A stretch of 63,213 bases of DNA, counting the filler, from Squatina squatina (Eukaryota), in the NCBI GenBank assembly GCA_031763465.1. It is 4 parts of 4 records of this genome, joined end to end, with 100 filler letters (N's around TTAATTAATTAA, not from the genome) between each part and the next. Parts side by side here need not be neighbours in the genome. Positions count along the whole stretch, not along the records: positions 17,162 to 30,351 come from JARFOE010000194.1; 3 more parts are not named here. One strand, given 5' to 3'. The notes beneath the pieces were generated by a model, which did no database searches, had not been told where the DNA came from, and worked only from the letters and a program-made list of their open reading frames with translations. The position numbers and the translations under genes are program-made. Shown here piece after piece: positions 4,329-38,927 of this stretch (its first letter is position 1; each line of letters begins with the position of its first letter).

Positions 4329-6640
4329 TGCTGGCTGCCTTTAAGTGGTGTCAGCAAAGCCCAAATTCCCACCCCTCCAAACAACCAATAAGTGGTGCTG
4401 GCTGCATGCCTGACTCATGATACTGAGCTGGCAGCACTGATTTGCAGTGGTCCCTGTGACCACATGACCAGGCGCCCCTCCCACTGTGCGCCCATTTTTC
4501 GACACAATCAAAGTTCTAGGCCCCTGGCTATCTGTGTCTCTATCGAAGTCTCTCTCTCTGTCCCACACTCTGGCTCTCTGTTTATTCTTCCAGTATTTAT
4601 TCCTCTCTGACCGGCCTTGTCTCTCCGTATCTCTCCCTTTGGCTCTGTGTTTGTATGTCTCATTTTCTCGCTGGTAGTAGGCTACAATGTTAACAGCAGG
4701 TCGCCTGTGCACGGAGGTGTTGTACACGTGTCTGTGTTTGCAAGCTGTGGCTGAATTGGAATGATCAGAGATTACTGAGTGTTTGATCTTTTTCTGTCTG
4801 AATGCTGTTTATTATTCAAACTGCCTCCTGTGTATGTACAGCAGCTGCATGTTAAAAATGTTGTTACTGTGATTGTTTGGATGCACACATTTTGGGTTCA
4901 GGAAAACCTAGCCTCAGGACACTNNNNNNNNNNNNNNNNNNNNNNNNNNNNNNNNNNNNNNNNNNNNNNNNNNNNNNNNNNNNNNNNNNNNNNNNNNNNN
5001 NNNNNNNNNNNNNNNNNNNNNNNNNNNNNNNNNNNNNNNNNNNNNNNNNNNNNNNNNNNNNNNNNNNNNNNNNNNNNNNNNNNNNNNNNNNNNNNNNNNN
5101 NNNNNNNNNNNNNNNNNNNNNNNNNNNNNNNNNNNNNNNNNNNNNNNNNNNNNNNNNNNNNNNNNNNNNNNNNNNNNNNNNNNNNNNNNNNNNNNNNNNN
5201 NNNNNNNNNNNNNNNNNNNNNNNNNNNNNNNNNNNNNNNNNNNNNNNNNNNNNNNNNNNNNNNNNNNNNNNNNNNNNNNNNNNNNNNNNNNNNNNNNNNN
5301 NNNNAATTTCTGAATGTGGATTAACCGCCACTCTACAGCATGTGTTGTATTATCTTTAACTGACAAATGTATGTTTTCACATTCAGAATTGACTCTTATT
5401 CACATATGCACAGTAACGTTGAGTCCAGGATTGTTCATGACCCGTCCACAGTATGTACTATGTTGCCCTTGAGATCATCCTATTGCCAAACAACTCAACA
5501 CATAATCTTATGTACTGTTTCAAGTATCTATCACCACCCTCGCATTCTCTGCGCGTACAAGCTTTACCCACCCACCAAACATAAATCAGCTGGATGGCTA
5601 CAACTCCTTTGCTATCATCCCTCTGATACTATGGAAACAGCCGGAAAGCTAACAGCACCTCCTTCCAAAGAGCCCACTCACTGCCGTACTTCTCTCTGTT
5701 GCTTTCTTTTTCACATCCTATGTGATAGGTGCCCAGGCTCTGGCAATAACTATGTTCCCCAATTTCACCTATGACACGACAGCCTACACTAGCAACAGTG
5801 GCACAGTACTGGAACCGGTGGTAAAATGGTTATTTCAACGCAAATTAATCTGTATTTTCAAGTAAGCCANNNNNNNNNNNNNNNNNNNNNNNNNNNNNNN
5901 NNNNNNNNNNNNNNNNNNNNNNNNNNNNNNNNNNNNNNNNNNNNNNNNNNNNNNNNNNNNNNNNNNNNNAAGGTTGCTGCCTTTTGAGAATTAGTCTGGA
6001 GAGAGATTCTGTGTCATTTTGCGTAGAATTAGACCTCACTCCCCCTTCATCTGTCATATCATTACGATAGCCCTAGCAAGCAGCCAAAAGGTCCTGATGC
6101 TGAGTGACTAGGATGTACTAATCAAGTCCCGAGTTACCCATCAGAACACATTCACCGATGCAGATGGCTTGTCATAGCAACTAAGGAACATGGGGCAACA
6201 GTTCCAATCCCCAGGGTCATCATGATAGTGCAGCTTAATATTGGTGCTGCATTTGTTCAGTGTGGTTTTATTGGATTTCTAACAGCAGTATATCCCGTGA
6301 TATACTGAAGTGATGCAGACTATGGATGCTGCTGCTGACAGAGCTGGGTATCTGATTGCTGTTCTGTGCAGCACATTGATTGGTGCTGTCTGAGAGAAGG
6401 TTGCTGGAGGGATGCTTGCATCCTCAAGTCTTACACTGGCCAGCGTCGAGCGCTCTGCAGTTCCAGCTTTTGCCTCCGCTGGCAAGGTCTGCCATTAACA
6501 GTAAGAAGCAGAAAGAAGAAGGGACAAAGAACGGGGACTATTTCCTCCTGGATTGAAAATAAAGAGAAGAATTTGATTTTTTTCCCTCTGACTCCAAAGG
6601 TGGAAAATAAGAAAATTTTAATTGAAAGATAGTGTCGGTC

Positions 6641-6961
6641 ATGAAAGCAAATCTGCACAAGAACCATCACTGCTGCAAGTGCCCAGAGTGCTATGAGGCA
6701 ACCAGGATGGCAGCTCTCCGTCGGATGGAACCACAGAATTACACTGAATGGCAGCACGAACCGTATGGATATGGTGGTTTCAGCTCTCAGACGCTGCCAT
6801 CTTCGTCAGGAGCTGCCGCCAGGAATAAAACCAAGCTCATCCCGACTTCCCGTGATAGCGGACCGATTAAAAGCCAAAATAAGAGCGTACCTAAGGTGAA
6901 CGGCAACAGTGGGGGATGGTGGCCGGAGTGTACATGTTCTACACGTGACTGGTATGAACAG
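6641..6961 (+). CDS. DLG3: DLG3/SAP102 first coding exon (Cys/His-rich N-terminus)
   Basis: MKANLHKNHHCCKCPECYEATRMAALRRMEP...SSQTLPS...KTKLIPT...WWPECTCSTRDWYEQ closely matches SAP102 MHKHQHCCKCPECYEVTRLAALRRLEP...WWPECTCTNRDWYEQ. Donor CAG|gtatgg, phase 0. There is an in-frame upstream stop at 6623. Confidence 0.95.
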
Positions 6962-17105: not shown

Positions 17106-17117
17106 TTAATTAATTAA
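17106..17117. other. Artificial scaffold linker
   Basis: TTAATTAATTAA (stops in all six frames) flanked by 44 N on each side. Confidence 0.95.
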
Positions 17118-26155: not shown

Positions 26156-26261
26156 CCTTATCTGCGTTCATTAACTCGAAGGTCTCGTTGTACAGCCCGC
26201 GGAAAGCATCAGTTCCCGTACCTGCTCCAGCAAATCGTTCTTTGATCTCATCAAACGTCAT
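26156..26261 (-). other. Bacterial-looking ORF start (probable contaminant/chimera)
   Basis: MTFDEIKERFAGAGTGTDAFRGLYNETFELMNADK runs into a gap. GGAGG lies 4 nt upstream of the ATG (26266-26270, minus strand), and the stretch is CpG-rich relative to its flanks. Confidence 0.5.
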
Positions 26262-27043
26262 AGTGCCTCCAGTACCTCAATTTCAATCATTTCTACATAC
26301 ATCTGAAATTAATTTAAGGACGTCTGCAAATGATGCTTACTGTAACCACAGTTGTTGGTCAGCTAAAGTAATGTATTTGGAATGAATCTACTTGACTGCT
26401 GGAACACTTTTTTCACTTTGAAATTCTTCTAATTGGCCTATCCATTAAAAAAAGTTTAATGGTCTATTTGAGATGCAAACTTAGTGCCAAGTGGTAGTTC
26501 TAAAGAACATCAGTGCCACTTGCTGGCCAAAAACAGCACTGCATGATCAAATATTCCCTGTAATATTGCAGACATATTTTGGAATATGAAGTAGTGCGAC
26601 GACAATTAACATATGGTGGGTCTTGTGATATTTTTGGCAGAAGACATCATGCATGAAAGTTATAATTTGATGTCATAGATTACAAATCAATAGAGGAGGC
26701 ATTCGGGGCACTTCANNNNNNNNNNNNNNNNNNNNNNNNNNNNNNNNNNNNNNNNNNNNNNNNNNNNNNNNNNNNNNNNNNNNNNNNNNNNNNNNNNNNN
26801 NNNNNNNNNNNNNNNGAAAAATACATTGAACATTTGGGAAATGAATAAAGCTAACAATGTAGTCAGTACTGCTAACTATACTGAAAATCAAGCACTGTTA
26901 CAAACATTGTTTACATTGCATTCATTATTTTCTTACCTGATGGACTTACCATTCTACTTCATTTTCCTTCAGCTTATCAGCCTGTTTTATAAAACAGATA
27001 ATTGATTGCCTTGGTTTTGTGCTGTGACCAATTTTTCAAAAAA

Positions 27044-27432
27044 ATGGACAGATTTCTCAAAGTTACAGGAAAACAACTGGAGAAAATTGGAAAAGAACAC
27101 CTGGAAAATGTAATTAAAGATGTGCAAGGAGGACTATTCAGAGACAATGCATCACATGCTGGTGACCACAACGTTGATTTTGACATGCTGCAAACAAAAT
27201 CCACAGGAAGAAAACTGGAGATAATTGGAAAGNNNNNNNNNNTATACACTCCAGATTAAAACCCAGGACAATTAGCGAAAGAAAAACCTGGAAAATTTTT
27301 TTGAAAAGATTGTGGAGCAAACGAAGGGGACAGAACCGCATGATGATGGTCGCGAAAGTGATGGTGACGTGCCAAGTAATGCCATTGAGAACACTTGTCA
27401 AAGTGAACCTACTTCAACAGAAACAGCAGCTG
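27044..27432 (+). CDS. Putative first coding exon of the ROCO-like gene (interrupted by a 10-N gap and a stop/frameshift)
   Basis: Upstream acceptor ttttccttcag (26972), ATG at 27044, coding-like composition with an internal repeat (TGKQLEKIGK / TGRKLEIIGK). Donor GCTG|gtgagt is phase 1, compatible with the 28634 exon. In-frame TAG at 27273-27275. Confidence 0.5.
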
Positions 27433-28633
27433 GTGAGTATCTTTCTTGTTTCTCCTCGTTACATTCATATCAATTAAAATTCAACAATAAAAGGAGGTGC
27501 TGAAAAAGTCTGGAATTTAAATATTTTTCTGTAACCTACTATTTGTGTTTTCATCACTTGTGCAGCTGGGAGTGCCTAAGAGGAATGTACTCAGATCAAA
27601 ATGTTCAAATCATTCTGAAACTGCTGCTGTCATCAAATTTCACAAGTATGAACAATAAGCTTCCCATAAATCAGAGCACATGAGCATGTCTGTGGCAGTA
27701 ACTGACTTGAAACAATATTTGTTGACCAATTTGAATCCTTTTTCTTTAGGGAGAGATTATAAATTAATAGGCTGGAATAGATCTTTATAAACAGTAATAG
27801 TTATCACACTGTGTTTCTTAGTTGAAGAAATTATATCTTATTGCTGCCCAGTTTTATTTTGAACTAAAAGTCCACTGGAATGCTAAGCAGAGCAGTTCTG
27901 GGATTATTCCCATTGGGAACCTCCACTGCTGACCTCACTGAAATCCCTGATTTGCATCGTTAGGGCAGGTCCCCGCACCACTGGGTGCCTATCTCCGGTA
28001 CCCACCTGGCCCACGAGGCCAGGAATCATTTCTAAAGTTGTTCCACTCCAGGGGGCTTTCCAGAAACTAAGAACATACAGCCCCTCGATGGATAAGATTC
28101 CTTGAACCTCTTTCAGTTCTGTGGAAGTCCAGGTGATGACTCATGCCCCCAAGGTAGACCCCATATACGTTGTCCAATGAGGGCTGATGCTCCTCATGGG
28201 ATACCAGTGCCACTACTCCAGCCAGCCAATCCGAGGTAAGGGCCGGCGGAATTCCCTGCATGAGGGTCCCCAGCCCCTGGCCATGTTGCCTCTGACACAA
28301 AGGGCCATATCTGGAGCAGGCACAGGTTCTGACCCAAAACAGCATCCCCTGGAAACTAGCAGCACAGGCTGAGACCTAGTGTGCCTGGCCTAATTCACCG
28401 GCCTTCTGCCCCATTCCTGACAGAGCTATGGCAGGAGTGTGTCACTAGGCTCACAGATCTTCAAGGCCTTTATATTGTTTAAGCACAGTTTATAATGTGA
28501 ATTACTGCTTCTCCAAGCACAACATGTGGCATTTCCTAAAACCTCTTCTTCGGAGTGTTAAATGACATCAACTTTATCAACGTCTCATATTTGTCGCTTA
28601 CTTGGTCTGATGGAAGGTTTTAATTATTGGCAG

Positions 28634-28864
28634 AAATTCAAGAAGCAAAAATGATGAATGAACTTAAAATGAAGCTTCAAAATATATTCCAGCAAGGAAA
28701 AGTTCCATTTTACGTCAGGACATTGACTGTTTGTGGCTACAGGAGTGCTGGGAAAACAACTCTGCTTCGGAAGTTACTGAATGAATCATTTCGGGAGGAT
28801 GAGCCCATAACAGATGGAATACGGATTGGACAGATAGATATTAAAAACTGGGAAAAAAAGATAG
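28634..28864 (+). CDS. Roc (Ras of complex proteins) GTPase domain, N-terminal exon
   Basis: Acceptor ttggcag, donor ATAG|gtaaat, 231 nt, phase 1-1. GKVPFYVRTLTVCGYRSAGKTTLLRKLLNESFREDEPITDGIRI contains a beta strand, a P-loop GxxxxGKT and a switch-I TDGI motif typical of Roc domains. Confidence 0.8.
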
Positions 28865-29055
28865 GTAAATACATATTCAGTTAGAGTCTGTGGTAGATTT
28901 GAATTCTCACATTAATCAAACTGAACCAGGCTGGAGGTAAATTGCAATGCAAGCANNNNNNNNNNNNNNNNNNNNNNNNNNNNNNNNNNNNNNNNNNNNN
29001 NNNNNNNNNNNNNNNNNNNNNNNNNNNNNNNNNNNNNNNNNNNNNNNNNNNNNNN

Positions 29056-29461
29056 GAGTTACTTGACATTCTGAAAAGCCTAAATTTAGTCGTCCAAGCC
29101 AATCCGGAGTCCAAATGCTACCATCTTTGGTTCAAGCGTAAGCAGAGAGAGATATTCCTATGTTTTTATGAGAACCAAGTTATGACTGCCTTCCGGAAAG
29201 ATGTCTTTAATGAATTGATACCAATGTTTCAAAAGGAATGGCCCTACATTGAATCCCTGGATGCTACTTTTGCTCTACTCGAAAAGAAAAAGAATGCCGA
29301 TTACAAAATACATCTGGAATTAGGACATGACAAGGTACGCCTTGTGAATAAAAATGAGTTTGAACACGATGATTTTGTGTATAAAGTTGGCTCCATTGTG
29401 GAGTCTATGCAAAAGCAGTACCAAAAGCTTTGTTTGTTTGTGGATGGCAGACCCTACAAAG
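29056..29461 (+). CDS. Partial coding exon, probable COR-domain C-terminal part of the ROCO gene
   Basis: About 135 stop-free codons run from the gap to the donor AAAG|gtaaga, on the same strand and downstream of Roc. The segments LLDILKSLNLVV...YHLWF, FRKDVFNELIPMFQKEWP and IHLELGHDKVRLV resemble the COR pattern. The COR call is an inference. Confidence 0.6.
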
Positions 29462-30395: not shown

Positions 30396-30407
30396 TTAAT
30401 TAATTAA
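30396..30407. other. Artificial scaffold linker
   Basis: Same N44-TTAATTAATTAA-N44 cassette. Confidence 0.95.
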
Positions 30408-38322: not shown

Positions 38323-38903
38323 NNNNNNNNNNNNNNNNNNNNNNNNNNNNNNNNNNNNNNNNNNNNNNNNNNNNNNNNNNNNNNNNNNNNNNNNNNNNNN
38401 NNNNNNNNNNNNNNNNNNNNNNAACTGGTGAGCTACGTTGTTCAAAACTTCATGAAGTAGGGCAACATAAAATCTAGCCTTTCCTACTAAAATAAAATTG
38501 TTACGCACAGATCTGTTATTGCTGTAGTTCAAAATAAAAATGCAATTTCAGCAAAATTTCTTTAAGTCGTTTTGTGCACCGTTATGGCGCAGGAAAATGC
38601 TGACCTCCAACAAAAGCATTTTATTATCAGGGAGCAATTTATTCAGCGTTTCTTTAAAGGAGGGTAGGTGCATAATAATATAATTTATATTGGCTCAATG
38701 TTATTTTAGTAGCTTTGCACCATTCCTCAAACTTCATGACCTTTAAAATTTTCTAAAACTTTTATTTCCACTTATTATTCTGAACAGATTTCATTACATA
38801 TTTTAAATGTAAACAACTCTGAATAATGATGTGGACTGTTCTGTGATTGTTGTTCTGACATTTGCGCATGAAGCCGAGATGGAAACCTAGTGCATTAATT
38901 TAC

Positions 38904-38927
38904 CTCTCATCTCCAGTAACCGTGCTT
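38904..38927 (-). CDS. Candidate 24-nt microexon of an unidentified gene
   Basis: ctttttacag|AAGCACGGTTACTGGAGATGAGAG|gtaaat, frame-preserving (STVTGDE or ARLLEMR). Confidence 0.35.

Follow-up and report, generated by a model that had tools for sequence, protein, structure and literature searches.

A conserved Roc-COR-CARD gene of cartilaginous fishes, very probably outside the four known vertebrate ROCO proteins

The window analysed here, a stretch of 63,213 nucleotides from the shark Squatina squatina (assembly GCA_031763465.1) made up of 58 pieces and 57 gaps, contains on its plus strand part of a gene for a ROCO protein, in which a Roc domain is followed by COR. Three pieces of the gene are present, and they are co-linear on the same proteins of related species, where they correspond to residues 1-114, 114-191 and 552-687 (Table 1). 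The gene is conserved, real and uncharacterised, and is common to sharks, rays and a chimaera. Judged on sequence, it very probably encodes a ROCO outside the four known from vertebrates, LRRK1, LRRK2, DAPK1 and MFHAS1 (PMC6337361; papers are cited by PMC number, each for its accessible part), and likely belongs to a separate lineage of invertebrate type. The full proteins of the relatives are approximately 1,060 residues long and end in a CARD, the most informative feature of the protein. The original prediction, a first reading of this DNA that proposed a non-canonical ROCO, missed the CARD because the gene runs approximately 370 codons beyond position 29461 and those exons, the CARD included, lie outside the window.

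Three exons with canonical splice sites had been proposed. The sites of the first two are present and the exons are phase-compatible, the junction codon G|AA encoding Glu, but the frame of exon 1 is broken and the third piece has a donor site only. Exon 1 also holds an in-frame TAA upstream of the ATG at 27044, which makes the N-terminus short, as predicted. The product of the 5' part of exon 1 exhibits 61-64% identity with three sharks, and its internal repeat was seen in four of five proteins tested, with helices predicted at low confidence. As assembled, exon 1 is not open, its frame being shifted by 10 N and 36 foreign bases. Positions 27228-27276 are skipped by four of five genomic-type runs of relatives (X5, X9, X10 and X11; in the fifth the letters differ) and positions 27243-27297 match many repeat contigs, so the interruption is likely an assembly misjoin; a private insertion is also possible. 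The third frame of approximately 135 codons is open and falls within the same relatives' proteins; it has no acceptor, and genomic and spliced contigs of relatives extend upstream of it as coding sequence. The 100-N gap in the scaffold stands for approximately 360 missing codons (1,075 letters in the X14 spliced contig), which bears out the expectation that the remaining G motifs and much of COR are hidden there.

The intron between exons 1 and 2 is removed at the predicted junction, 27432/28634, in contigs from three runs of one study (X13, X14 and X15), which were taken as transcript-derived because the contigs are spliced; the run search found no run among the sequence holders recorded as RNA. 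A single X14 contig carries all three pieces spliced and extends past 29461, its match beginning at 26972 with different letters upstream. Introns are conserved in the relatives' genomic contigs too. A Pfam scan of 149 open frames of the window, which are most of the 174 frames of at least 62 codons, turned up no other portion of the gene.

Table 1. Features of the gene within the window, numbered along the whole stretch.
Feature	Position	Strand	Basis
5' untranslated portion of first coding exon	26973..27043	+	acceptor AG 26971-72; in-frame TAA before ATG
First coding exon, 5' part: residues 1-64, with a short repeat, predicted helical, present twice	27044..27232	+	relatives' protein alignment
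10 N and 36 repeat-derived bases, frame-breaking	27233..27278	.	skipped by relatives' runs
First coding exon, 3' part: acidic linker, residues 64-114	27279..27432	+	donor GT at 27433
GT-AG intron, phase 1	27433..28633	+	acceptor AG 28632-33; spliced out in X13, X14 and X15 contigs
Exon with Roc G1 (GYRSAGKT, 28735-28758) and G2 (ITDGI, 28807-28821)	28634..28864	+	donor GT 28865
Scaffold gap, 100 N, hiding Roc insert, G3, G4, G5 and most of COR-A	28956..29055	.	residues 192-551
3' end of a larger exon: last COR-A helix and likely divergent COR-B	29056..29461	+	donor GT 29462

Searches with exon 2 (13 proteins among 42 candidates) and with the third piece (14 among 164) recovered the same set of relatives, all chondrichthyan. 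With cluster members added, the set covers 21 named species (sharks, rays, skates and Callorhinchus), a distribution that rests on word-based searches, and a second locus was seen in none of the 21. This agrees with the proposed span of the lineage across cartilaginous fishes, and such orthologs do not fit a parasite or prey contaminant. The relatives are annotated as uncharacterised, hypothetical or CARD-containing proteins and as nothing else. Across the 16 relatives tested, exon 2 is identical at 44-69 of 76 residues and the third piece at 87-128 of 135, so the exon matches are beyond chance; the third piece is nearest to those of Pristiophorus (128/135) and Heptranchias (127/135), as would be expected of a squalomorph shark. 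Overall identity between chimaera and sharks is 60%. By region, the N-terminus has a mean identity of 0.42, Roc and COR have 0.78-0.88, the helical region 0.69-0.76 and the CARD 0.69; the most conserved stretch is G1-G2 (0.88). A metagenome scan revealed no relative among 148 pattern matches.

The proteins of the relatives begin with a short N-terminus, followed by Roc, COR-A, a likely divergent COR-B, a predicted region of helices and a coiled coil, and end in a CARD. At E<=0.05, Pfam detects Roc in all 14 aligned proteins, CARD in 13, the remaining one being a truncated model, and COR-A in 12; Roc (31-36 bits, cut-off 27) and CARD pass their Pfam cut-offs in five of five proteins. LRR (leucine-rich repeat), ankyrin, kinase, WD40, Death and NACHT domains were found by Pfam in none of the 14, in keeping with the predicted LRR-free N-terminus. 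Exon 28634-28864 alone, in which the predicted P-loop and ITDGI are present, has Roc as its best Pfam family (E 2.7e-4, under the cut-off) and an archaeal Roco as its best PDB match (E 0.0034). Identity as a ROCO holds for the family as a whole, and readings as Rab, Arf, GIMAP, NACHT or ABC proteins, some of which had been named as possible competitors, were rejected because Roc ranks first among NTPase families and COR follows it. The Roc domain is interrupted by an insert of approximately 60 residues, and G1-G3 are intact in 14 of 14 proteins, reading GYR(S/T/N)AGK(T/S), TDGI and DFGG.

Structural models are consistent with this arrangement. The top five Foldseek hits of a full-length model are all ROCOs, and its Roc aligns with LRRK2 Roc over 153 residues (Z 14.7, root-mean-square deviation (rmsd) 2.8). 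For the third piece, a fragment model of a skate-like COR gives the corresponding domain a predicted local distance difference test (pLDDT) score of approximately 70-90, and its Foldseek hits at E<=0.001, four in number, all fall on COR or Roc-COR of C. tepidum (COR at E 7.9e-5). By position and predicted fold, 29056-29461 is likely a divergent COR-B; the COR similarity claimed for it thus stands on those grounds and not by sequence alone. A sub-threshold Atlas match of the third piece to DUF2299 (0.89) was rejected. Residues 681-950 are predicted to be helical, and the fold search is barely informative there. Two ray isoforms, P0003 and P0048, skip approximately 127 residues of this region (772-898 of P0004) and retain the CARD, reflecting alternative splicing of the stalk.

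The CARD of the relatives, whose exon lies outside the window, aligns in the model with the NLRC4 CARD over 85 residues (Z 12.9, rmsd 2.0). By sequence it ranks nearest to NLRC4 (49 bits, E 1.6e-12) and caspase-1 (37 bits, E 8.8e-9), followed by ICEBERG (28), CARD8 (21), RIPK2 (17) and NOD1 (14). The protein model P0005 diverges into other sequence exactly at the CARD start, a hint of an exon boundary there and hence of a CARD that may have been shuffled in.

A profile search of 7,999 candidates of 461-1,939 residues returned 14 chondrichthyan proteins, then proteins from Owenia (93 bits) and Acropora (52) and one unnamed protein (51). No bony vertebrate protein, DAPK1 or MFHAS1 was found at E<=0.001 among these candidates, for which shared words were required and whose range excludes LRRK lengths. 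Against the PDB, the shark-family profile matches isolated LRRK2 Roc constructs only, and weakly (E 0.0025-0.16), whereas a profile of outside ROCOs matches LRRK2 at about 1e-22, suggesting that the shark protein is more derived. Profile alignment with the annelid, coral and unnamed ROCOs covers residues 129-673 with a probability of 99.7 (99.5-99.7 across the profile matches to ROCOs), and the shark and invertebrate proteins have in common a long G2-G3 insert, a second insert preceding T-x-x-x-Y-L-D-(Y/F)-W, and the motif F-x-V-D-N in G5. In the Atlas, the top three clusters are mollusc-dominated Roc-COR clusters (0.97), and a score of 0.93 goes to a sponge-dominated cluster bearing Roc, COR-A and CARD (26% of members). 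The likeness to expanded invertebrate ROCOs noted in the original prediction is thus upheld.

None of the vertebrate layouts is present in the family. The LRRs that precede Roc and the kinase that follows COR in LRRK1 and LRRK2 are missing in 14 of 14 proteins, with a stop upstream of the ATG, and the same stop and absence of LRRs distinguish the family from MFHAS1, in which an N-terminal LRR region precedes Roc-COR. DAPK1 has an N-terminal kinase and ankyrin repeats and a C-terminal death domain, none of which occurs in the 14 proteins. The order Roc, COR-A, likely COR-B would be the same as in the four vertebrate ROCOs, and the modelled Roc and COR folds align with LRRK2, but the aligned Roc domains are only 20-25% identical, the context of G1, G3 and G4 differs, and LRR, ankyrin, kinase, WD40 and Death domains are lacking. 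Nor is the protein a member of the NLR family, as NACHT is absent from 14 of 14 and the likeness to NLRC4 is confined to the CARD. Compared with the inflammasome proteins NLRC4 and caspase-1, the CARD is similar and an NTPase is likewise joined to it, but Roc-COR takes the place of NACHT, the CARD is C-terminal and there is no LRR.

The expanded invertebrate ROCOs, represented by Owenia fusiformis CAH1787734.1 (Roc-COR-Death-like), Acropora millepora XP_044171091.1 (Roc-COR-GT4) and the mollusc-dominated Atlas clusters, resemble the shark protein in combining a short N-terminus and Roc-COR with a C-terminal effector or adaptor. The shark protein differs from them in its identity of approximately 25%, in having one locus per species rather than a gene family, in a CARD that replaces Death or GT4, in an added helical region of approximately 270 residues and in the loss of the G4 aspartate. 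Roc-COR and CARD also occur in one protein in the sponge-dominated Atlas cluster and in Trichoplax, which has ROCOs with CARD and death domains (PMC4104024); the shark counterpart belongs to vertebrates and has a CARD nearest to those of NLRC4 and caspase-1, and it is plausible that the shark and placozoan/sponge fusions arose independently.

We place at somewhat under one half (about 0.45) the probability that the protein acts as a nucleotide-switched scaffold that would cluster its CARD and recruit caspase-1 or ASC-type partners. By analogy with known ROCOs, nucleotide binding would alter COR-mediated association; this would gather the CARDs and, as known CARDs behave, seed an assembly of CARDs that results in cell death or inflammatory signalling. 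Since there is no repeat sensor domain, the protein would not recognise diversified ligands; its input would be a fixed partner or the state of the cell, received through the helical region, the repeats of the N-terminus or the Roc insert. Beyond the domain anatomy we infer every step, and the COR-B fold and helical stalk are themselves predicted. AP-GTPase-COR proteins with variable C-terminal effectors have been predicted to be conflict switches (PMC8195603). The innate-immune sensor role originally suggested fares less well: a single copy, high conservation and the lack of a repeat domain fit a fixed scaffold or adaptor better than a diversifying sensor. A more ambitious version, in which a ROCO framework of ancient invertebrate type, since lost from bony vertebrates, captured a CARD of NLRC4/caspase-1 type and became a chondrichthyan inflammasome with a Roc-COR nucleator instead of NACHT, is decidedly unlikely.

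Several observations weigh against the overall reading of an invertebrate-type ROCO that acts as a nucleotide-switched scaffold. One locus per species and a mean Roc-COR identity of 0.78-0.88 are unlike expanded immune sensors. G4 reads VGTF(A/S)(N/K) in 14 of 14 proteins, without the aspartate of the (T/S)HxD found in three outside ROCOs; in GTPases this aspartate reads guanine, and guanine specificity is therefore in doubt. G4-G5 are known to vary among Roc domains (PMC6337361), and the missing aspartate bears on the proposed function rather than strictly on family membership. COR-A scores reach 15-19 bits against a Pfam cut-off of 35.3. The full-length model is poor (pLDDT 44.9), and the Z score of its Roc is tied with other small GTPases. 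The third-piece domain matches COR-B (Z 7.7, rmsd 3.2, 97 residues) no better than it does KA1 and spermine synthase domains (Z ~8), and the input alignment of the fragment model contained invertebrate ROCOs. Alone, the third piece has no Pfam and no PDB sequence match, and its 0.8 bits against an invertebrate COR-B profile were equalled by 173 of 1,000 shuffles.

The missing G4 aspartate could instead indicate a weakened switch, and the protein would then be a CARD-bearing brake or nucleotide-insensitive scaffold that caps or sequesters caspase-1 or NLRC4-type assemblies, like ICEBERG. The presence of ICEBERG among the CARD matches, the absence of a sensor domain and the conserved single copy fit such a role, which is nevertheless unlikely given that G1-G3 are nearly invariant and G1-G2 is the most conserved stretch, suggesting that the nucleotide site remains important. 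The slow evolution of a single copy between chimaera and sharks would also suit a housekeeping or developmental ROCO acting in trafficking, in developmental apoptosis or on the cytoskeleton, whose CARD would serve as a general, non-immune adaptor, and non-immune roles are common among ROCOs (PMC4104024). This has a similarly low probability, as the CARD is nearest in sequence to inflammasome CARDs and the closest outside relatives terminate in Death or GT4-conflict domains.

It is improbable that the gene is a fast-evolved paralog of DAPK1, MFHAS1 or an LRRK that lost its N-terminal domains and had a CARD swapped in. DAPK1 likewise lacks LRRs and has a death-fold C-terminus (PMC6337361), and the similarity ranks used here can mislead with long branches; however, no named DAPK1 or MFHAS1 emerged at E<=0.001 from the profile search of 7,999 candidates in which the annelid ROCO scored 93 bits, the matches to LRRK2 are confined to isolated Roc constructs, and two insertions are in common with invertebrate ROCOs. 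A private disruption of the gene in this one genome is possible. A contaminant, pseudogene or scaffolding chimera is very improbable, for although the scaffold has 57 gaps, exon 1 is frameshifted and a Klebsiella plasmid fragment lies approximately 700 bases upstream, orthologs occur in 21 named species, the relatives' genomic contigs conserve the introns and spliced contigs come from three runs of one study.

The gene very probably adds a further vertebrate ROCO, without kinase or LRR, that has persisted in chimaera, sharks and rays, and it would tie the jawed vertebrates to the invertebrate expansions of death-fold ROCOs. Its Roc-COR switch and one CARD output make it a simple system in which to ask how Roc-COR acts without a kinase and whether death-fold ROCOs really have the immune role predicted for them. 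It is apparently undescribed, given that no description of a chondrichthyan gene combining Roco and CARD was found in literature whose coverage leaves out most subscription papers, although there is invertebrate precedent for the combination; the accessible parts of PMC11378527, PMC8195603, PMC9334734 and PMC10176861 do not describe it. The surprise is tempered by PMC8455134, whose main text, in its accessible part, mentions neither Roc nor COR but whose orthogroup table lists at least 10 Roc orthogroups. For three of them no human gene is listed: OG0009895 (LRR-Roc-COR, 31 proteins, 12 chordate taxa), OG0010602 (25 proteins, 3 taxa) and OG0016782 (2 proteins, 2 taxa). On this table OG0009895 is another vertebrate ROCO beyond the textbook four, so a count of four is an undercount, and the shark CARD ROCO may sit unnamed among the orthogroups. 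PMC8455134 also includes an 'NLRC4-like' protein of the whale shark that lacks NACHT, XP_020392928.1, which may be this gene, as a candidate identity only.

Elsewhere in the window, the contig end at 26157-26264 (minus strand) encodes 36 residues that match, at 100% identity, a hypothetical protein present in 53 Klebsiella plasmid records; this is bacterial DNA merged into the shark scaffold upstream of the gene. Open frames of 85-137 codons at 38887-39144 and 62673-63086 have no Pfam match and are possibly coding. Islands of 12 A+T-only bases between runs of 44 N, at 17106-17117, 30396-30407 (TTAATTAATTAA) and 49898-49909, are probably scaffolding spacers. On the plus strand, DLG-type MAGUK exons lie at 1032-1259, 2163-2375 and 6626-6931, with L27_1 and MAGUK_N_PEST followed by an alternative first exon, which we take to resemble DLG3. 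An L27-bearing DLG3 would be unusual, and contig order in the scaffold is unreliable. A long, gap-interrupted zinc-finger exon on the minus strand, at 58371-61622, presumably resembles that of the teashirt gene TSHZ3.
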